The notes under the pieces are model-generated. The model searched no databases. It saw nothing but the letters and a program-made list of their open reading frames with translations, and had not been told where the DNA came from. Positions 663-54,062 of a stretch of DNA of 64,000 nt are shown one piece after another; positions within the stretch are counted from its first letter, which is position 1, and the number at the start of each line of letters is the position of its first letter. The translations under genes and the position numbers were made by a program. The stretch covers positions 37,231-101,230 of the IMG/VR virus record IMGVR_UViG_3300028634_000502. One strand, written 5' to 3'. This DNA comes from a virus (lineage: Duplodnaviria; Caudoviricetes).

Positions 663-1211
663 TCAAATCTGATGGTTTTCTAAAAATTCTTTAAGTTTTT
701 TCTCTGCACGCTTTAACTTTTGGCTGATGTTATTTTCGTCAGCATCGATAGAGCGAGCATATTCACGGATTGGTATGCCATCAATGCGTACTGCGATGAA
801 CATATCCGCCCAATCTTTCTTTTTACCAAGTGCCTTATGTATCCATTGGCAAATATCTTCATACTCGTAGAGGCGATTACGCTCAGCCTCCTGTGAATCA
901 TCAGCGAAGGTATCCATTACATCCGTTTCATCTTCAGATTCATCATCCTTGCGATAAGGAGTCTTCGGATCGCCAAGATGCCTATGAAACTTGCGCCAGT
1001 TGTTGTATTCCTTACTGTTCATAAGGTCTAACATTTCCTGTACAGTCTCACAACGCTTTACTTCTGCCTTCTTTTCTGGCCTTGCCTCTGCAAGACGCTG
1101 CTCATAGTCGATATCCAGCATGATGCTGTAATCATCATCCGGAATATCAATTGTGGTGTAGAACTTGTGGCCGTTTTTGATGTTTTCTTCGTACAAAACT
1201 CGAATCTTCAT
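663..1211 (-). CDS. Phage sigma-70 region 4-like/HTH transcription regulator
   Basis: Start MKIRVLYE after GGAAAGGAA; C-terminal HTH (IREYARSIDADENNISQKLKRA); paralogous to 53287-53859. Confidence 0.75.
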   Translation of the reverse strand: MKIRVLYEENIKNGHKFYTTIDIPDDDYSIMLDIDYEQRLAEARPEKKAEVKRCETVQEMLDLMNSKEYNNWRKFHRHLGDPKTPYRKDDESEDETDVMDTFADDSQEAERNRLYEYEDICQWIHKALGKKKDWADMFIAVRIDGIPIREYARSIDADENNISQKLKRAEKKLKEFLENHQI

Positions 1212-1412
1212 TAAGTATTCCTTTCCGTCCCGGCATTGGGCGGCGGAATACAAAAGAGCCTGCGGTGAAGATGACCACAGACTCCGCTTGTCCTTAAAAT
1301 GGGCGCACGAAATCACGGTGGGTGCATCTTCATTCCAAACACAGTCTTTATCACTGTGTTCTGAACTCTTATGCATCCCGCCGTCCTAATGCGCATCTCG
1401 GACATTGAGATT
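1201..1412 (-). ncRNA. Conserved structured 5' leader (copy 1), putative attenuator/antisense-type RNA
   Basis: Near-identical to 53849-54062; long stem 1316-1383, terminator-like hairpin with U-run 1252-1284, RBS-occluding hairpin 1215-1251. Confidence 0.65.
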
Positions 1413-1661
1413 TTATTGGTTTATAGAGAGAAAATTGATTTTTAGCGAGGAAAAATTCACATCCGCATAAAAAACTTTAGAGAATGTGTAGAAATTTACA
1501 AAATTTTCTGATATACTGGACTTGCTATAGATTTCCAATTTATTTCCTCGTAATCTCTTACTCTCTACTATTAAACTTATAGTAGATACAGTTACCTGCA
1601 AGAGCCTTCAACGGTTACTTTAGTTGATATAGTTACTATTTTTTGAAAAGGAGGGCTATGG

Positions 1662-5528: not shown

Positions 5529-5732
5529 ATGCGTATCAGCTATAATAAGCTATGGAAGATGCTAATCGACAAAAACATGAATAAGCAGGATTTAAAAGAA
5601 TTAAGTGGCGTAAGTGCCGCCTCCATTGCCAAGTTAGGGAAAGGCGAAAATATCACTACCGATGTCCTTCTTAAAATTTGTGAGGCCATGGATTGTCGCC
5701 TGGAAGATATTTTAGAAACTATTGACGATTAA
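5529..5732 (+). CDS. Xre/Cro-C1 HTH regulator (HTH_26-like)
   Basis: MRISYNKLWKMLID...SIAKLGKGENI; close paralogue of 57246-57467. Confidence 0.9.
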   Translation: MRISYNKLWKMLIDKNMNKQDLKELSGVSAASIAKLGKGENITTDVLLKICEAMDCRLEDILETIDD

Positions 5733-14640: not shown

Positions 14641-16104
14641 TTAATGTTTCAGATTTATTTTCTTATCGCTAATTTCATAAACCACGTCAGCCACATTATC
14701 GAGTAGCCGTTTGTCATGAGTGATAAATACTATAGTTCCAGCATACTCCTTCATTAATATTTCCAAAGCCTCTAAGCTTGGTATGTCAAGGAAGTTACTC
14801 GGTTCATCCATTAGCAGGATGTTATATCTACCCATAAGCATTTTAGCCAGCAACAATTTAATAATTTCTCCGCCGCTTAAAGCAGATAAGCTTTTTCCAA
14901 TATCGTTTTGTTTAAGCCCCATTGATGCTAGAACCGAACGAATTTCTGAAACATTGTATTCACAATCCTCCTGCATAAACTCCATGACTTTCTGATTACC
15001 GTTGTACTTGTAACTATTTTGTGCAAAGTAACCTATTTTTGCCTTAGGTGAAATAGAAATTCCATCTTCATGGTTTATGATCATTTGGATTAAAGTTGTT
15101 TTTCCTGTTCCATTGGCACCAGTTAGCGCCACTTTTGCTCCTAGGGGAATTTGAAAAGATGCTTTTTCAAACAGTATCTTATCCCCAAATATTTTAGTAA
15201 TTTCCGTACCGACAATAGGATATGGATTGTAGAGTGCCAATGCATCACTTTGCCTAAAACGAATCCTGCTAATATTTTCTGGAGCTTCTACATTTCCTAA
15301 GGCCGCAATCCTATGATCCAGGGACTTAGCGGCATTATGCATCTTTTTTTCCTTACTTCCTATTGATTTTTGATGAGCTAAACGCCCTCCACCTTCAGTA
15401 CCTTTTTTCTTTGAAGCACCTTTTGCCTTCTGTTCTATTTTACGAGCCTGTTTTCGCTTTTCCTCCGCAGCCCTTTCCAATCGGCCACGTTCCGCAACAA
15501 ATTGTTCGTATTCTGCTGCCTGGCTCTTGCGTTCTTCCTCTTTCTGGCGAAGAAAATCAGAATAGTTTCCCCAATACTCAGTGATTTTTCCATCTTTCAG
15601 TTCCCATATTTTATCTACTACCTCATCAAGAAAATATCGGTCATGGCTAATAACTAACAGTGCACCTGTAAAATATTTTAGCTGTCCAATTAGAAAATCA
15701 ATTCCTTCACGGTCTAAATGACTGGTAGGTTCATCGGCTAAAATACCATGTACTTGTGCTGATAAAGCCTGTGCTATTTTAAGTCTTGTTTCTTCACCAC
15801 CGCTCATGGTCTGTATATCTAATTGCTCAACACCCAGCTTGCCTACAAGTGCAAAATCTTTTTCCTCCTGCAAACTTACTTCGTCCAACTGAGGGATATA
15901 AGCAAGTTCACCCAGACGATTCATTTTACATCCTGCTGGAGTTAATTCCCCTAAAAGCACCCTGAGTAAAGTGCTTTTCCCTGCACCATTTGCTCCTACT
16001 AAACCAATACGGTCATAATCATATACTTCTAATTCATCTATATCTAAAACATCTCGCCCTGTGAATTCCACACGAATGTCTTTGGCTTTTAATATCAATT
16101 CCAT
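14641..16104 (-). CDS. msr(D): ABC-F ribosomal protection protein Msr(D)-like
   Basis: 487 aa, [14 protein letters not shown] start, two ABC domains, directly downstream of mef. Confidence 0.95.
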
Positions 16105-16181
16105 CTTATTTCCTCCTGTCTATAATCGCATGCTTTCATTTGCTTGTACGCAGGGAAAACCCTACGATTTTAGCAGGAAGA

Positions 16182-16202
16182 TTACATGAAAATAAGATAC
16201 AT
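16182..16202 (-). CDS. msrDL: msr(D) leader peptide MYLIFM
   Basis: ATG TAT CTT ATT TTC ATG TAA in the mef-msr(D) gap, preceded by GGAGG. Confidence 0.85.
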   Translation of the reverse strand: MYLIFM

Positions 16203-16218
16203 AAATACCCCTCCAATA

Positions 16219-17436
16219 TTATTTTAAATCTAATTTTCTAACCTCTGTTAGCATGGGGCAAACTATAGCAATGCCAATAATTAAAATACCTGATAGTAAA
16301 AACCAATGATTTACACCAATTCTATCAGCAAAGAATCCAGAAAGAATTAATCCAATTGGCATAGCAAATGACATAATACTTCCGGTCAAAGAAAATACAC
16401 GTCCTAAATATTCAGGCTTAATCTTCTCCTGAAAAAGAGCTGTTTGCACACCGCTATAAAATGGCACCGAAAGCCCCATTACTGCACAGCAAGCTACAAA
16501 TATAACAAATCCACTTGGAGGAAGTAATCCTGAAACGGCTAAACTGGCTCCCATTATAAAGAATGAACCTGTTATTAGTAATACACGCTTTTCAAAGTTC
16601 CCCAACCTTCCTAATAGTAGACCGCCTACTAGCATTCCAGATGCAAAAGCGATTTCGGTAATGGAAATATGCACAGGTGTTCCATTAAAGTATTCCATGC
16701 TAATTAAAGGAAATAGTGCATTAATTGGCATATACACAAACGTATATAGCGTTCCTAAGAGTAATAAGGCAAATAAGCCTTTGTTTTGTCTCAATGCGAC
16801 AATTCCTTCTTTCATTTCTCTTAAGAAATTTGGTTTCAAACTTTGCACTTGATCGCCCAGCTTAGGAATACTTACAATTGCTACCGTAATAGATGCAATC
16901 ACAGCGCCCAATACATCGATAGCAATAATTGCATTTAATTTCCAAGCGGAGTATAACAATGCTGCAGCCGCCGGACTAATAATATAGCTTATTGACTGCA
17001 CAGACTGACTATAACCTGCGCATTTCGTAAGCTGTTCTTCTGGTACTAAAAGTGGCGTAACCGCATTGAGGGCCGGAGAATGAAAAGCCGTTCCAATGCT
17101 ACGGATAAACAATACTACCATAACCATCCATACCGGTAATTCCATATACAATGCAACAATAGCTAGCATTGCCCCAGCTGCTGCGATAATTAAATCAGCA
17201 CCTATCATTATCTTTTTCCTGTCATGACGATCCACTAATACACCAATGGCAGGCCCAAAGACTGCATAGGGTAAAAAACCTACTAGTGAAGCCATAGACA
17301 AGACCATCGCAGATCCTGTTTTTTCTGTAAGATAAAAAATAATCGCCATTTGCAGTGTGGCACTAGTGATTAAAGAAACCGCCTGCCCTGCCCATATAGT
17401 ATAAAACTTAAGTTTCCAATTTATATATTTTTCCAT
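16219..17436 (-). CDS. mef: Macrolide efflux MFS transporter Mef(A)/Mef(E)-like
   Basis: 405 aa from MEKYINWKLKFYTIWAGQAVSLITS. Confidence 0.95.
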   Translation of the reverse strand: MEKYINWKLKFYTIWAGQAVSLITSATLQMAIIFYLTEKTGSAMVLSMASLVGFLPYAVFGPAIGVLVDRHDRKKIMIGADLIIAAAGAMLAIVALYMELPVWMVMVVLFIRSIGTAFHSPALNAVTPLLVPEEQLTKCAGYSQSVQSISYIISPAAAALLYSAWKLNAIIAIDVLGAVIASITVAIVSIPKLGDQVQSLKPNFLREMKEGIVALRQNKGLFALLLLGTLYTFVYMPINALFPLISMEYFNGTPVHISITEIAFASGMLVGGLLLGRLGNFEKRVLLITGSFFIMGASLAVSGLLPPSGFVIFVACCAVMGLSVPFYSGVQTALFQEKIKPEYLGRVFSLTGSIMSFAMPIGLILSGFFADRIGVNHWFLLSGILIIGIAIVCPMLTEVRKLDLK

Positions 17437-17703
17437 CTTTATTATCTCCTGCATATTATTTTTGCTTGAATTTCTATTTTAAATAGTATTCTAGGCAATA
17501 AAAAATGCAGGTCAAAATCCACAATGTGGCTTTGGTCTGCATAACATACAATATAGAAACATTCTTTAAAAAGACATAGTTAAATAAAACTATAGTAAAA
17601 TAGTTTAAATTTCACCTTAACTAATGAATGCTCAATATCGTATAAATAAGCACAACAAAAAAGCCTATCATCGGGGATAGATTCTGCCTTTTTTATTGCC
17701 AGC

Positions 17704-17730
17704 TTATCTTAAACGCATTGAGGCTGTCAT
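17704..17730 (-). CDS. mef leader peptide MTASMRLR
   Basis: ATG ACA GCC TCA ATG CGT TTA AGA TAA after AGGAGG; RLR macrolide-arrest motif. Confidence 0.88.
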   Translation of the reverse strand: MTASMRLR

Positions 17731-17863: not shown

Positions 17864-19444
17864 CTATATCTCTTTGTCTATTTGTATTCCAATTCCGGAC
17901 TTAAATTCAACTATGATGTGGTCGTCGTAAACCGTTATCTTTTCCAAGAGAGTCCTCACATAGTCTTCTTCATATTCAGTTAGCTCACAAGGCAGGTCGT
18001 TAAGGAAACGCATCAACTCATTAATTCGCTTTTTCATATCCTGTCGGGATGCCTGCTCGTTTTGAAGGGACTGCTTCTCATCGCGCAGCCTCCTAATCTC
18101 CAGACCAAGCTCATCACCGGTATTCTTAGAATTAACTGTTGCCATTAGCTCCTGCTGCATTGACTTCATCTGTTCATCAATCGCTGCAATCTGATTTGAG
18201 GTGACTTCCCCAAGGCTACTCTCGATATTCTCTCGTAAAAGTGGTAGGATTGCTTCCTTTTCACGGAACGCTTCGTTTATAGCTTTGATAACTACCTCCT
18301 GAAGCAATTTCTCGTGAACAGTTCTTGCCGGGCAATCAGGGCCGTCTTTTTCAACCCTGCTGACACAGCGCCAAACTGTGGACTTACACCCACGATTGTT
18401 CCATTTAATTCTGCGGAAGATGTCGCCACAGTATGCGCAGAAAACTATTCCAGATAAAGCGTAACGGCCACTATAGATTCGTTTGCGCTTTGTGGTGCCT
18501 TTGGTAAGATTTGCGCGTCTTGCGATTTCCTCCTGTACCTTTAGGAAGATATCCTTTGGAATAATTGCTTCATGGCTGTCCTCTACATAATACTTAGGAA
18601 CTTGACCCTTATTAGCTTCACGCTTCTTTTCAAGAATATCCACCGTATAGGTTTTCTGGAGCAAAGCGTCTCCGATGTACTTCTCGTTTGTGAGTATCTG
18701 CTTTATATTGCTTTCATGCCATTTTGCATTACCTGCACCGTTTAGAATTCCATCTGCTTCAAGCGACCTTTTTATCTGCAAGAAGCTCTTTCCACTAAGA
18801 TACTCCCTATAGATGCGCTTCACGACTTTAGCTTGCTCTGGATCAATGATGAGATGCCCCTCTTCATCTTTGGTATACCCCAAGAACCAGTTGTGGTTGA
18901 CCTGAACTTTTCCTTGCTGGTATCGGAACTGCAATCCAAGACGAACGTTGGCCGACAATGACTCACTTTCCTGCTGCGCAAGAGAAGCCATAATTGTCAT
19001 GAGCACTTCACCCTTAGCATCGAGCGTGTTGATATTTTCCTTTTCAAAGTAAACGCCGATATTCTTATTCTTCAGGGCTCTGGTGTAATTAAGGCAATCG
19101 ACCGTATTTCTTGCAAATCGGCTGATGGACTTGGTAATAACCATATCTATCTTGCCATCATTACAGTCGTTAATCATTCGCTGGAACTCATCACGCTTCT
19201 TAATATTCATTCCAGAGATACCGTCATCGGCATATATTCCTGCAAGCACCCAATCCGGATGACTATTGATAAATGAAGTATAATGCGCAATCTGTGTTTC
19301 GTAGCTGGTTTCCTGCTCATCACTATCAGTGGAAACTCGGCAATAAGCAGCTACTCGTGTTTTCTGGACTTTATCGGTTGTTTTCTGTGTACCGATTGTT
19401 TTCTTTGCTGGAATAACCGTAACATTGCTGGCTAAGGAAATCAT
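17864..19444 (-). CDS. Large serine recombinase
   Basis: [16 protein letters not shown], recombinase domain, Zn ribbon and coiled coil. Confidence 0.95.
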
Positions 19445-19860
19445 ACATCCACCTCACTTTCTATCAAGCTGTAGACGTATTCTGCCTGTTTAAAAGGATC
19501 ATCATATTTCATTTGCACACTTGGCATTCTAAAACCTTTAGCAACCTTGTTCTCTTTGGCTGGCTTATCATCAAATACTCTTCCAAGCTTAACCTGTCGT
19601 TTGACACGCTCGGCTTCTGCAGCTTCAAAGGTCTCATTATCAATAATCCCCGGATAATAGTCGTCTCCGAGGTAATGCTTATTTTGCATCATCTTCTTTG
19701 CACCTGTGTGGTAAAGCTTAAGTCCGGCGGCTTCTGCTGCTGGCACGTAGGCAAGGCCAGAGAGGTATGCTTTGTAGAGCTTCTTTACTTTCTCTGCTTT
19801 TTCTTCATCAATAACTGCTTTACCATTTTCAATTCTGTATCCGTATGGGACATGACTCAT
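19441..19860 (-). CDS. Small recombinase-domain-only accessory protein
   Basis: PYGY start and N..YLG motif, no catalytic domain; between two LSRs. Confidence 0.8.
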
Positions 19861-19864
19861 ATTC

Positions 19865-21424
19865 TCACAACCTTTCCTTAAGGGTTAAACCGCACTTTAG
19901 TGCGAAGCCTATTTCACTTCTGTTGTAAACAGTGATGCGGTCAACATGTGCCTCAAAGGCATCTGCATCAAATTCTGTAAGTTCTGTACTATTGTTTATA
20001 TACTTTAAGAGCCTGCTTACTGCTTCCGCATTCTCAAGCTCACCATTTACTGAGCGGTACAATACTTCCTTTTCATTTCTTAATTCCTCTGCTTCAGCTA
20101 AGAGCTCACTGTTCTGCTTGGCATAAAGTGCAGGCTCGATGTACTGCTTTGAAAGAAGGTTTGTAAGGACCTGCCTTCGGTCAAAGTTCTGTTCCAAAGC
20201 CGTCTCAAGCTCGTTAATTCGAGCAAGTGCATTAGCTTGGTCAATGCTTTTAAGGCTATTAAGGAAAGGCTGTAAAAGAACCTTTTTGCTAAAAATTAGC
20301 TTGTTCATCATATTTACAAAAGCAACCTCAAAATCCATCTCTCTGATAAAAAGCTGGCCGCACTTATTCTTCTCCTTCAGGTGAGTATTGCAGGTGTAAG
20401 CATAATATTTTACCTTACAGGCAGTATGTGTTCTTCTTTTCCAAGTAGCGCTACATTCGCCGCATATTATTTTTCCTGAGAATGGGTAACGGCTCAGGTA
20501 CTTCTCATCATCCGCTACAATATTCTTTTCTTTAGCACGCTGGACAATAAGTGTCTGCGTTGCTTCGAATTCTTCATTGCTAATTATTGCTTCATGATGA
20601 TCTTTAACATAGTACTGTGGCTTTTCACCCCGATTTGAATGTCTATCAAATTGTGAATCCGTGAATGTTTTCTGAAAGAGAGCATCGCCTGTATACTTCT
20701 CATTCTTCAGGATTTCTTTAACTGTCGTGGAGCTCCATTTGCCGCCTCGCTTTGTCGGTACCTTTTTTTCTCTAAGTGCTTTTGCTATTTTATAGCTGCC
20801 TTTTCCAGAAAGGCATTCTCTAAAAATAAACCTGACAATCTCTGCTTCTTCTTCATCAATAACCATCTTGCCATTTACGTTCTTATATCCGTATGGCGGA
20901 TATCCAATTTTGAAGGTGCCGTTTTGGAACCTTTTCTGAATGGCCCATGACTCATTCTCAGCAATGGAAACTGATTCACTCTCTGCAAGGCTACTAAAAA
21001 TCGTAAGCAGCAGCTCGCTCTCCATGTCACCGGTGTTGATGTTTTCCTTCTCAAAATAAATAAATACCTTAAGCTTTATAAGCTTTCTAACTGCCTCAAG
21101 GCACTCTGTTGTGTTTCTAGCAAAGCGGCTAATGGATTTAATAATGATGAAGTCAATCAATCCTTTCTCACAATCGGAAAGCATCTTCATAAGACCATCT
21201 CGCTTTGCCATGTTTGTACCGGAGAGTCCTTCATCGTAATAAAGGCCAACGTACTTCCAATTTGGATTGCTTTTGATATACGCTTCATAGTGTCGTTTTT
21301 GAGCTTCCAAACTGACGAGCTGTTCACGACTATCTGTTGAAACACGAGCATAGGCAGCAACACGCAGTTTTTTAGGTGCCTTCTGCAGCTTCTCATTTGC
21401 TTCAATCTTTGTTATCCGTTTCAT
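19865..21424 (-). CDS. Large serine recombinase
   Basis: [20 protein letters not shown] Zn ribbon; start MKRITKIE after AAGGAGG. Confidence 0.95.
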   Translation of the reverse strand: MKRITKIEANEKLQKAPKKLRVAAYARVSTDSREQLVSLEAQKRHYEAYIKSNPNWKYVGLYYDEGLSGTNMAKRDGLMKMLSDCEKGLIDFIIIKSISRFARNTTECLEAVRKLIKLKVFIYFEKENINTGDMESELLLTIFSSLAESESVSIAENESWAIQKRFQNGTFKIGYPPYGYKNVNGKMVIDEEEAEIVRFIFRECLSGKGSYKIAKALREKKVPTKRGGKWSSTTVKEILKNEKYTGDALFQKTFTDSQFDRHSNRGEKPQYYVKDHHEAIISNEEFEATQTLIVQRAKEKNIVADDEKYLSRYPFSGKIICGECSATWKRRTHTACKVKYYAYTCNTHLKEKNKCGQLFIREMDFEVAFVNMMNKLIFSKKVLLQPFLNSLKSIDQANALARINELETALEQNFDRRQVLTNLLSKQYIEPALYAKQNSELLAEAEELRNEKEVLYRSVNGELENAEAVSRLLKYINNSTELTEFDADAFEAHVDRITVYNRSEIGFALKCGLTLKERL

Positions 21425-21486
21425 TGTCTCAACCTCCTTTCTCGCAGTACTATACATCACTCTAAAAGCCTTATTTATCAAGTCTT

Positions 21487-35962: not shown

Positions 35963-37564
35963 TCAAAAAACGAGCAGTCCACGTGTGTCATACACGCTTT
36001 CGCCCGAGTCGTTACCGCACCGAATTGCGCGGTCCAATGCCATAATCGTCGCAACCGCACCATCGATCTTTTCTGTGGACTTTTCCTTGTCGGCCTTGAT
36101 GTTTCCGGCAGGATCGGTTCGAATAAAAATGTTATCCATCATCCACCGAAGGACCGGATGGCCACCGTGCGCGATTTTTTCTTCAAATGTAAGTTTCATT
36201 AGCTCTTTTGTCGGCGGAGACATATCCTTGAAGCCCTGCCCAAACGGGATGACCGAAAAGCCGAGATTCTCCAAATTCTGTGTCATCTGGACCGCGCCCC
36301 AGCGGTCGAAGGCGATCTCGCGGATGTTATACTTCGTGCCCAGCTGTTCAATGAACGCTTCAATGAAGCCGTAATGCACCACATTCCCTTCGGTAGTTAA
36401 CAAAAACCCTTGTTTCTGCCAAACGTCATAATTCACATGATCGCGCCGGACACGGAGGTCAATGTTGTCCTCCGGTATCCAGAAGAACGGGAGCACACTG
36501 TATTTGTCCTCCTCATCGAGTGGCGGGAAAACCAGCACGAACGCTGTTATATCCGTACTGCTAGAGAGGTCGAGTCCGCCGTAGCAGACCCGCCCTTCGA
36601 GAGCGGCTTCGTTCACGGGAAAAGCGCATTGATCCCATCTGTCCATAGGCATCCAGCGCACCGCCTGCTTGACCCACTGGTTCAGTCGAAGCTGCCTGAA
36701 GCTATTCTCCTCGGCGGGGTTTTGCCTTGCTGATTCAAACGCTGCTTTAACTTTGTCCATGCTGACGGTGATGCCAAGTGATGGATTCGCCTTTTTCCAC
36801 ACCTTCGGATCAGACCAGTCATCCTCGGAAGCTGCCCCGAAAATCACTGGGTAGAAGGTGGGATCGTTCTTTCTGCCGTCGATGATATCCAGTGCTTTTT
36901 GATGCACTTCCCAGCAGATGCTGTTTTGGTTATCACCGGCAGTGGTGATCAGGAAATACAGTGGCTGCATCCTGGCGTCGCCGCTGCCTTTGGTCATGAC
37001 ATCAAACAGTTTTCGATTGGGCTGGGTGTGCAGTTCATCAAACACGACGCCGTGGGTATTGAAACCGTGCTTGTTTCCCACATCAGCAGACAAGACCTGG
37101 TAGATGCTGCCGGTTGGCAGAAATATGAGCCGTTTCTGTGAATCAAGGATTTTCACCCGCTTGGATAGTGCCGGGCACATGCGCACCATATCCGCCGCTA
37201 CGTTAAAAACGATCGAGGCCTGATTGCGGTCTGCAGCGCAGCCATAAACCTCGGCGCGTTCCTCGTTGTCACCGCAGGTCAGCAGCAACGCTACAGCGGC
37301 GGCGAGCTCTGATTTCCCCATTTTCTTAGGTATCTCTACATACGCGGTGTTAAACTGCCGATAGCCATTGGGTTTTAGGGTACCGAACACGTCTCGGATA
37401 ATCTGTTCCTGCCAATCAATCAGCTCGAAGGGTTTTCCTGCCCAGGTGCCTTTGGTATGGGAAAGTGCCTCGATGAATGCGACTGCATAGTCGGCCGTCT
37501 CTTTGCTGTAGTAAGCGTCCTTCGCTATAAAAGTAGTCGGTTTGTATTTTTTGAGTTTTCGGAT
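35963..37564 (-). CDS. terL: Terminase large subunit (probable non-canonical ATC start)
   Basis: KKMGKSEL Walker A, FDELH, DLSS..D, KIDG; frame open for 58 codons upstream of the ORF-track start, to an ATC just after AAGGAGGTGA. Confidence 0.9.
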   Translation of the reverse strand: MRKLKKYKPTTFIAKDAYYSKETADYAVAFIEALSHTKGTWAGKPFELIDWQEQIIRDVFGTLKPNGYRQFNTAYVEIPKKMGKSELAAAVALLLTCGDNEERAEVYGCAADRNQASIVFNVAADMVRMCPALSKRVKILDSQKRLIFLPTGSIYQVLSADVGNKHGFNTHGVVFDELHTQPNRKLFDVMTKGSGDARMQPLYFLITTAGDNQNSICWEVHQKALDIIDGRKNDPTFYPVIFGAASEDDWSDPKVWKKANPSLGITVSMDKVKAAFESARQNPAEENSFRQLRLNQWVKQAVRWMPMDRWDQCAFPVNEAALEGRVCYGGLDLSSSTDITAFVLVFPPLDEEDKYSVLPFFWIPEDNIDLRVRRDHVNYDVWQKQGFLLTTEGNVVHYGFIEAFIEQLGTKYNIREIAFDRWGAVQMTQNLENLGFSVIPFGQGFKDMSPPTKELMKLTFEEKIAHGGHPVLRWMMDNIFIRTDPAGNIKADKEKSTEKIDGAVATIMALDRAIRCGNDSGESVYDTRGLLVF

Positions 37565-53275: not shown

Positions 53276-53315
53276 CCCTCTACCCATTAGCCTTGAGAAG
53301 AGGTGAAAGTTGAGG
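53276..53315 (-). promoter_or_regulatory. Putative phage-sigma promoter motif at the 3' end of the sigma-like gene
   Basis: Same motif and spacing as 48945-48984. Confidence 0.55.
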
Positions 53316-53859
53316 ATTCCGGAAAAACCTTTTTGAAATTTTTTATTGCGGTTTCCATACGGTGCGATATGGCGCTGACAGAAACACCCTCGCGCTCTGC
53401 ATACTCAGTCACTGACATGCCGTCCAATACGATGGCTATCAGCATTTTCGCCTGTTTTGCTTTTAGAGTCTTACGAATGCTATTACAGATGCATTCATAT
53501 TCCAGATGTTTTTCACAGTTCTCTTCATCTGAGTTATCAGGGAATAATTCAATTGCATTTTCCTTTTCACTTTTATCATCATCAGCATCATTGATTACTT
53601 TTGCATAACCCCTTTTCCCATTAAGTTTCTTGGGTGGAGTAATAGCAGCTGAATGCCTGTCAAACTTATGCCAGTTGTTGTACTCCGGCTTGTTGAAACG
53701 CTCGTCCATAATTTCCTGCACAGTACGCCGGGTTAAGGTTTCATTGTCATCAGCGGCGGATAGCCTGTCCTCATAATCCGCATCGATCATTACTGAGCAT
53801 TCCTCGTCCGGTACCTCCAGGTAGGTTGGCTTGTTGTCATACAGAATTCGAATCTTCAT
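53287..53859 (-). CDS. Phage sigma-70 region 4-like regulator
   Basis: Start MKIRILYD; C-terminal HTH VTEYAEREGVSVSAISHR; paralogue of 663-1211. Confidence 0.8.
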   Translation of the reverse strand: MKIRILYDNKPTYLEVPDEECSVMIDADYEDRLSAADDNETLTRRTVQEIMDERFNKPEYNNWHKFDRHSAAITPPKKLNGKRGYAKVINDADDDKSEKENAIELFPDNSDEENCEKHLEYECICNSIRKTLKAKQAKMLIAIVLDGMSVTEYAEREGVSVSAISHRMETAIKNFKKVFPESSTFTSSQG

Positions 53860-54062
53860 TAAGTATTCCTTTCCGTCCTGGCATTGGGCGGCGGAATACA
53901 AAAAGAGCCTGAGGTGAAGATGTCCACAGACTCCGCTTGTCCTCAAAATTGGCGCGCGAAATCACGGTGGGTGCATCTTCATTCCAAACACAGTCTTGGT
54001 TACTGTGCTCTGAACTCTCTATGCATCCCGCCGTCCTAATGCGCATCTCGGACATTGAGATT
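53849..54062 (-). ncRNA. Conserved structured 5' leader (copy 2)
   Basis: Near-identical to 1201-1412, with differences concentrated in loops and linkers. Confidence 0.65.

Follow-up and report, generated by a model that had tools for sequence, protein, structure and literature searches.

The 64,000-nucleotide (nt) stretch of viral DNA analysed here (positions 37,231 to 101,230 of the IMG/VR provirus record IMGVR_UViG_3300028634_000502; "the window" below) carries, directly in front of a gene for a small sigma-region-4-like protein, a leader of about 205 nt which is a real, widespread and strongly structured RNA. Two mutually exclusive global folds of this leader, termed OFF and ON, exist in silico, and both are conserved and covarying. 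As far as its sequence goes, the leader represents a new RNA family. The kind of regulation is a known one, the coupled design is unusual, and the leader probably works in cis as a default-off attenuator combined with a translational switch. On the attenuator side, a G+C-rich hairpin followed by a U-tract lies upstream of an open reading frame (ORF), together with conserved antiterminator and anti-antiterminator helices. On the translational side, one conserved fold has the Shine-Dalgarno (SD) sequence paired, and its conserved alternative leaves it free. A first-pass annotation, made from the letters of the window, had proposed a non-coding leader whose pairings exclude one another in front of the first lytic gene, and the conservation and covariation of both pairing sets bear this out.

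The leader is present in exactly two copies in the 101-kb record, both within the window and on its minus strand: copy A at 1209-1412, from AAUCUCAAUG to the start codon (covariance model score 252.8 bits, E 3e-56), and copy B at 53857-54062 (241.8 bits). The two share 194 of 206 alignment columns (94%), with 1-nt indels between them. The similarity sets in abruptly at AAUCUCAAUG (1411 / 54061) and is gone about 25 nt past the start codons; the DNA upstream of the two copies does not align, and the downstream proteins are 38% identical. The earlier description of a near-identical duplicated leader between unrelated upstream DNA and moderately similar proteins is therefore correct, as is that of a different apical loop and an A-U pair changed to G-U in copy B, both of which are seen in the copy alignment. 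Fold z-scores against dinucleotide shuffles were -6.8 and -5.6 for the two copies. The counts given below refer to an alignment of 101 full-length leaders, taken from covariance model hits at E <= 5e-5.

The leader begins with a short A-rich tail, followed by a long interrupted hairpin (helices P1-P4) whose middle helix joins segment X (GGACGGCGGGAUGCA) to segment Y (AUGCACCCACCGU). Next comes the terminator T, a 12-bp G+C-rich hairpin with the loop UCAUCUUCA and then U4-5, and 3' of it a hairpin between segments Z (UGUAUUCCGCCGCCC) and W (GGGACGGAAAGGAAUAC), with the SD inside W and the start codon 8 nt after the SD. In copy A the 5' domain with P1-P4 spans 1290-1404 (all leader coordinates on the minus strand), in minimum-energy as well as consensus folds, and its helices 1-5 have compensatory changes; a long stem with an internal loop had been noticed here earlier, which stands as to its presence but not as to its extent, given as 1316-1383. 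Segment X lies at 1365-1393 and Y at 1308-1332. T, with 12 bp and a 7-nt loop containing CAUCUUC, occupies 1252-1285 including the U-tract at 1252-1255; the terminator scan called it at 1255-1285, in agreement with the terminator-like hairpin and U-run of the first-pass annotation. Segment Z, extended over the U-tract and the terminator base, lies at 1232-1260. The SD-sequestering hairpin Z:W (helices 7-8) is at 1215-1251, with the SD GAAAGGA at 1219-1225, and the GUAUUCC...GGAAUAC stem proposed for this hairpin is indeed part of the predicted fold. In copy B, the corresponding positions are 53939-54054 for the P1-P4 domain, 54013-54043 for X, 53957-53981 for Y, 53900-53934 for the terminator hairpin with its U-tract, 53880-53909 for the extended Z and 53863-53899 for the SD-sequestering hairpin (SD at 53867-53873, start codon at 53857-53859). 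The copy B terminator stem reads CCUCAG where copy A has CCGCAG, and because of the resulting U.U mismatch, a state found in 4 of the 101 leaders at that pair, the terminator scan left this hairpin uncalled.

The OFF fold combines the long X:Y hairpin, the intrinsic terminator T and the SD-sequestering Z:W helix. Across the alignment, 93.9% of its cells were paired, compared with 32-53% when the partners were slid by 1-3 columns; compensatory changes occurred in 40 of 57 pairs, and 0 of 500 shuffles equalled the observed values. As the alignment had been fitted to the OFF structure and the sequences are phylogenetically related, these are supporting counts and not probabilities. The terminator (helix 6) was paired in 98.6% of cells, X:Y was supported as helix 3 and Z:W as helices 7-8; covariation, whose lack would have spoken against the first-pass reading, was seen over these 101 homologues. 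Single-sequence minimum-energy folds of six divergent leaders (L141, L063, L134, L156, L159 and L157) gave the same architecture. Moreover, U occupies at least 4 of the 8 nt that follow T in every leader (101/101), and 95 of them have GAAAGG 7-8 nt upstream of the start codon.

The ON fold consists of a long-range helix X:Z of 20-27 bp and an antiterminator formed by Y with the 5' arm and loop of T (T5'). Although the alignment was not fitted to it, 84% of the ON cells were paired, against 35-48% with slid partners, and 12 pairs had compensatory changes. An alignment-free duplex test on 14 diverged lineages, with composition-preserving shuffles (n=200 each), gave X:Z helices of 20-27 bp and -23 to -40 kcal/mol, compared with -10 to -21 kcal/mol for the shuffles; in 12 of the 14 lineages none of the 200 shuffles matched the energy. 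The Y:T5' duplexes in these lineages had -15 to -23.5 kcal/mol, including L141 and L157, whose sequences are unrelated. In copy A, the duplex of 1365-1393 with 1232-1260 reaches -38.9 kcal/mol against -19.1 +/- 3.1 for shuffles (0/200 as strong), and in copy B -39.9 kcal/mol. The long-range complementarity between the 5' segment and the ribosome-site hairpin is therefore longer than first claimed, and the same applies to the UGAAGAUG:CAUCUUCA pairing, which had been placed between the long stem and the terminator loop and which spans the entire terminator 5' arm.

Both complementarities are kept although the sequences of the lineages differ. X GGACGGCGGGAUGCA faces Z UGUAUUCCGCCGCCC in class I, GGACGAUGGAAGCA faces UGUGUCCCAUCGUCC in L003, and GGGCAAAGGAUACA faces UGUAUCCUUUGCC in class II. 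On the antiterminator side, Y GAAGAUG is matched by CAUCUUC in the loop and 5' arm of T in class I, GAAGUAC by GUACUUC in class II, and GGUGCCUGA by UCAGGCA(U)C in L157. The class I X:Z helix continues over the U-tract into the base of T (AAGAG:CUCUU). In the predicted folds, X:Z pairing takes Z away from W and leaves GAAAGGA unpaired. Since X:Y excludes X:Z, and pairing of the two terminator arms (T5':T3') excludes Y:T5', the six segments can be written as one chain, W-Z-X-Y-T5'-T3', in which neighbours are alternative partners and two global matchings exist.

The pairs themselves point to the strand that matters: G-U made up 9.9% of the pair cells and A-C, which is what the opposite strand would require at those positions, 1.6%, so the conserved entity is a strand-specific RNA. 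A purely DNA-level element without RNA function, such as a recombination anchor or a protein-binding site between exchangeable modules, might be suspected from the very high nucleotide identity across hosts with diverged flanking genes and from the unrelated cargo directly upstream. We consider it hardly credible, given that compensatory changes preserve the helices in lineages of different sequence, that G-U exceeds A-C in a strand-specific way, and that the geometry of U-tract and SD is conserved. An ORF call at 663-1376 runs into the leader because the AUG inside X of copy A chances to be in frame with the main ORF. This AUG is present in 65 of the 101 leaders and missing in 36, and the ORFs that begin with it are 8, 27 or some other number of codons long, or run without a stop, with all three frames represented when compared with the main ORF; a leader peptide was rejected, and the leader is, on this comparison, non-coding. 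Two further candidates were dropped. One is a pairing between the 5' tail and the first codons, which by eye is not kept between classes. An antisense promoter on the plus strand (ATGACC-18-TAAAAT, 1271-1300) overlaps the conserved CAUUUU motif and was judged a chance match; the equivalent sequences of other classes, such as CUCUUUUUCAGG, do not resemble a -10 box.

The order in which the segments are transcribed has a strong effect on the predicted fold. With the leaders cut at the U-tract, the terminator hairpin was in the minimum-energy fold of all 101 and X:Z in none, Z being not yet made; cut after Z and before W, the terminator hairpin was retained in 43 and X:Z appeared in 81; at full length, the figures were 98 and 5. 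In silico, the ON fold is thus favoured only in the short interval when Z is made and W is not yet. At full length, about 96 of 101 leaders have OFF as their ground state. Over all 101, the free-energy difference (ON minus OFF) is +5.5 kcal/mol on average (standard deviation 5.1), with about half of the leaders within 5 kcal/mol, a gap similar to the several kcal/mol by which nearest-neighbour energies of 200-nt RNAs are uncertain. The two window copies differ in this respect: full-length copy A prefers OFF (-87.3 kcal/mol), while copy B prefers ON (-84.6 kcal/mol), a predicted shift to ON by about 12 kcal/mol. A thermosensor was considered and rejected, as the ON-OFF difference moves just from 5.9 to 4.1 kcal/mol over 15-55 C.

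As an attenuator with a translational switch, the leader would gate the first gene and thereby the whole co-directional lytic gene train. By default it would fold sequentially into OFF, and because the X:Y hairpin is complete before T5' emerges, most transcripts would be expected to stop at T. In a lysogen, leaky transcripts would end there as an RNA of about 170 nt and the read-through mRNA would be translationally silent, so that the first lytic gene would be braked at two levels. Its expression could be reached by two routes: either X is held off Y during transcription, whereupon Y would pair with T5', or the ON fold is captured after read-through, for instance by a 30S subunit binding the SD before Z:W closes. 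A phage or host factor, or a ribosome on the exposed SD, would be candidate inputs, and a single refolding event could lift termination and free the ribosome site at once. Between P3 and P4, the OFF fold has an internal loop with two single-stranded sides, AAGA on the 5' side, which complements UCUU in the T tail, and GAAG on the 3' side, which complements CUUC in the T loop; it is a matter of speculation that these loop sides serve as toeholds for strand exchange. A stronger version, in which the six segments make up an autonomous, protein-free toggle (toeholds GAAG:CUUC and AAGAG:CUCUU, with strand exchange running from the terminator to the ribosome site) that times induction or senses a signal, is possible but rather doubtful.

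Several points weigh against the attenuator-switch reading, among them the fitted alignment and the energy uncertainty already given. The early completion of the X:Y hairpin in silico, before T5' emerges, means that antitermination needs some further input not seen here, and X:Z cannot itself decide termination because Z is transcribed only past the termination point. No effector was found among the candidates examined (leader peptide, temperature, a small basic ORF), and a consensus scan gave no clear sigma-70-type rightward promoter upstream of either window copy. The empty effector search and the OFF ground state of nearly all leaders would also suit a constitutive fail-safe with a processing site, where T and the SD hairpin damp leaky transcription and X:Z, near-perfect over 20-27 bp and long enough for RNase III, is an RNase III-type substrate by which the read-through mRNA is matured or destabilised. 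RNase III-type processing occurs in the lambda N leader. Such a device is unlikely in our estimation, as it explains neither the conserved, covarying Y:T5' complementarity nor the closeness of both folds, within a few kcal/mol, across lineages.

The layout of anti-antiterminator, antiterminator and terminator is also that of riboswitch expression platforms, and stretches such as CAUUUU and the GAAG internal loop are conserved between classes and unpaired. This could mean that the 5' domain binds a small molecule or a protein, with the stabilised X:Y helix acting as an OFF riboswitch or a protein-mediated attenuator. However, the domain consists of a single long hairpin that lacks a multi-helix junction, the sequence and length of its apical part vary freely, and the second pairing partner accounts for most of the conserved bases, with a few stretches such as CAUUUU left over; the hairpin is very stable already without a ligand, and an Rfam match is absent. 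An aptamer is accordingly quite improbable. Still less probable, in our view, is a processive-antitermination RNA like HK022 put or EAR, which would modify the polymerase to pass T and later terminators. The position would suit it, with a structured RNA just ahead of a terminator where a one-directional gene train of about 36 kb starts, but such elements do not require covarying alternative pairings, and no match to EAR or any other Rfam model was obtained. No boxA- or boxB-like features turned up in the leader, in the course of work that included no search aimed at them. The leaders of lambda N with nutL, of HK022 put and of EAR resemble the present one as structured leaders of about 100-200 nt between an early promoter and the first regulator or terminator; in contrast to them, alternative pairings dominate the conservation here, and Rfam returns no match.

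An important question raised by two copies in one record is whether the leader also acts in trans. The first-pass annotation had likened it to the P4 CI and P1 C4 immunity RNAs and suggested cross-talk between the two prophages. Indeed, the P4 CI and P1/P7 C4 RNAs are phage leader RNAs in front of operons with antirepressor-type genes and are complementary, over a long range, to sequences close to a ribosome site. Unlike them, the present leader exposes the SD upon X:Z pairing and does not cover it, has no predicted tRNA-like fold and comes from phages of Gram-positive hosts, and the Rfam C4 model does not match it; going by these sequence features, it falls outside the P4 CI / P1 C4 family. 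A small terminated RNA is predicted, which could pair via X with Z, or through other segments, of the same or a co-resident phage and so confer immunity or cross-talk. As X and Z are identical in both window copies, the heterologous X:Z duplex is as strong as the one within a copy, and cross-talk between the copies would be physically possible, if it took place in trans. However, because X:Z frees the SD, the effect would be activation and not repression; every mRNA carries its own X in cis; the only sites in the window complementary to X or Y are inside the two leaders; and near-identical leaders with unrelated upstream control regions would not define immunity groups. A trans-acting role therefore seems decidedly unlikely.

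The distribution of the leader was followed from its sequence and from the protein downstream. BLAST against a phage collection found it in three records, namely Erysipelothrix phage phi1605 (91% identity), Streptococcus phage Javan630 (92%) and a Ruminococcus phage placed under Candidatus Heliusvirales (76%), whereas a search against plasmids gave no match. With 160 loci gathered via the downstream protein from IMG/VR and GTDB genomes and the three phage records added, nhmmer detected the leader in 149 of 163, with 105 distinct sequences, and covariance model R1 yielded the 101 full-length leaders, each directly upstream of a sigma-region-4-like gene. The named hosts belong to Clostridia, Bacilli (Enterococcus, Heyndrickxia, Oceanobacillus, Lacticigenium), Erysipelotrichia and Negativicutes (Propionispora, Megasphaera, Pelosinus). 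Searching whole genomes with the covariance model alone returned the leader in 2 of 134 species genomes of the Enterococcus lemanii family and in 11 of 151 (about 7%) of the Lacrimispora family (Lachnospiraceae-type). The same gene stood downstream in five of six such model-only loci, and the sixth, a remote variant, had a different sigma-region-4-like gene. A remote variant at L168:1501-1691 (minus strand, 34.6 bits) resembles the other leaders in its long hairpin and SD hairpin but lacks a clear terminator in the predicted fold, and the small sigma-region-4-like gene downstream of it is a different one. In L126, the functional-looking leader at 982-1203 is preceded, at a distance of about 350 nt, by a second, diverged copy (408-627, 80 bits); the start codon of this second copy is followed by no ORF of at least 30 amino acids (aa), and the copy is probably a decayed tandem duplicate. 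Class I leaders with the gene (74-76% protein identity) were also met in metagenome-assembled genomes labelled Methanolobus, Thermotogaceae and Dissulfurispiraceae (L104, L108 and L097); these contigs probably represent binning contamination and not real hosts.

The Rfam check, which had been recommended with the DUF2800 motif in mind, gave no match for the leader, to that motif or any other. At gathering thresholds, Rfam 15 had a single match in the whole window (sRNA_1300, see below); with E up to 10, positions 1100-1700 returned just chance snoRNA matches of at most 19 bits, and five divergent leader loci gave nothing with E up to 0.1. Literature searches, including the Heliusvirales paper, found nothing on this leader RNA, and the leader could not be mapped in the supplements of the published transcription-start data for C. 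phytofermentans.

Compared with the leader, the DNA upstream of it is highly variable. In copy A, the region between the leader and a divergent defence operon (1413-1661) may be a control region; it has an imperfect GCGG...CTCGC palindrome and a predicted leftward promoter (plus strand, 1489-1517), which is conserved within the upstream type that copy A belongs to. A block TGTAAATTTCTACA ... AGTATATCA at this place is conserved in the window (1489-1517) and in six further loci (L087, L117, L054, L126, L159, L133), and read on the opposite strand it gives a good extended -10 promoter (TAGAAA-17-TATACT with TG) toward the divergent cargo genes. Upstream of the leader, the DNA falls into several unrelated types. 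One of them contains the operator-like palindrome GGACA-N5-TGTCC; another, to which copy A belongs, has TGCGA-N14-16-TCGCA with an AT-rich centre, imperfect in copy A (window 1440-1470). Palindromes of this sort recur in otherwise unrelated upstream regions (for example L092, L141, L079 and L038), also as the variant GGACA(T/C)G-N2-4-(C/G)TGTCC. Most upstream types have a short G+C-rich hairpin and then an A-rich stretch just before P1. That the palindromes and the -10-like boxes are control elements is speculative. The arrangement fits a variable, immunity-specific promoter/operator module joined to a generic leader. Since class I leaders are nearly identical in phages with unrelated operator-like upstream regions, the leader itself cannot carry immunity specificity.

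In 23 of the 101 loci, a short ORF of the phrog_5079 family (42-47 aa, Lys/Ser-rich, with a strong SD and the conserved C-terminus KSVAGSALSQTRPSKKK; for example L002:3531-3674 and L001:3781-3909) ends about 90 nt upstream of the leader, which is then intercistronic. Small basic proteins in such a position could be candidate RNA binders. As a general N-like effector, however, this ORF was rejected, as it precedes just those 23 leaders and neither of the window copies.

The regulated gene of copy A (663-1211, minus strand) encodes a 182-aa protein with a C-terminal sigma-region-4-type helix-turn-helix, assigned to phrog_11138 in PHROGs and with weak Pfam matches to Sigma70_r4_2/ECF. Its AlphaFold model is confident only at residues 106-180. 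This part superposes on region-4 domains of ECF sigma factors with target-normalised TM-scores of about 0.65-0.76 for region-4-only chains, whereas the Foldseek E-values were weak. The gene of copy B (53287-53859, minus strand; a 190-aa sigma-region-4-like protein) is the first of a co-directional train on the minus strand that continues for about 36 kb down to 17864: the sigma-like gene, exonuclease, DNA polymerase, primase-helicase and helicase come first, then large terminase, portal, major head protein and tape measure, and finally two serine integrases (17864-21481). Divergent from the leaders lie defence-type cassettes, AAA_13/RloC-like upstream of copy A and the unrelated ABC-3C CTD11/DUF2326 upstream of copy B. 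A small Xre gene with a Cro/C1-type helix-turn-helix by Pfam is located at 5529-5732.

A region at 14641-17727, flanked by the integrase end of prophage B on one side and the cargo of prophage A on the other, carries the sRNA_1300 match mentioned above (an Enterococcus model; 17498-17727, minus strand, 200.9 bits), directly upstream of a gene for a major facilitator superfamily (MFS) transporter (16219-17454, 411 aa). An ABC-F gene follows at 14641-16104 (487 aa), both genes being on the minus strand. In size and order, we take this pair to resemble the mef/msr(D)-type macrolide-resistance genes with their leader. The region also contains SDR, MarR, hexapeptide acetyltransferase and GrpB genes.

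Among known RNA regulators, the attenuators built on intrinsic terminators (riboswitch platforms, B. subtilis trp and pyr, and the repC/repR leaders of pT181 and pIP501) share with the leader three tiers of exclusive helices around a terminator, termination by default and the location in the 5' leader of the regulated gene. They differ in that no ligand, protein, tRNA, leader peptide or countertranscript has been identified for this leader, and in that X, once released by antitermination, has a further partner here, Z, past the terminator, with which its pairing would unmask the SD. One refolding event would in this way couple transcriptional and translational control. For covariation-supported alternative folds that depend on the order of transcription, the closest conceptual parallel appears to be the hok mRNA of hok/sok with its tac, tic and fbi pairings. 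It is likewise a self-contained mRNA whose exclusive long-range pairings are backed by covariation, whose fold is decided by transcription order and whose translation is activated by a 5' element that displaces an SD-blocking element. In comparison, the present RNA precedes a phage regulator and not a toxin, has no antisense partner and no 3'-end processing signal, includes a terminator in its chain and shows no sequence relationship to hok.

Overall, a prophage lineage present in Clostridia, Bacilli, Erysipelotrichia and Negativicutes has this leader at the one point of entry to its lytic programme, and one member of the lineage is placed under Candidatus Heliusvirales, a very common group of human-gut phages. 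Since no classical divergent cI/cro pair stands beside the lytic operon, the RNA is a concrete and testable candidate for part of the lysis-lysogeny control. It is also a practical marker of the boundary between exchangeable defence cargo and lytic genes. RNA biologists gain with it a natural, well-populated family that comprises at least 100 distinct sequences, divided among several divergent classes, with two global folds both under selection; this family could be used to study co-transcriptional folding and the coupling of termination with translation. If the protein-free toggle were true, the RNA would be a threshold or timing device for induction in a very widespread lineage of Bacillota and gut phages.

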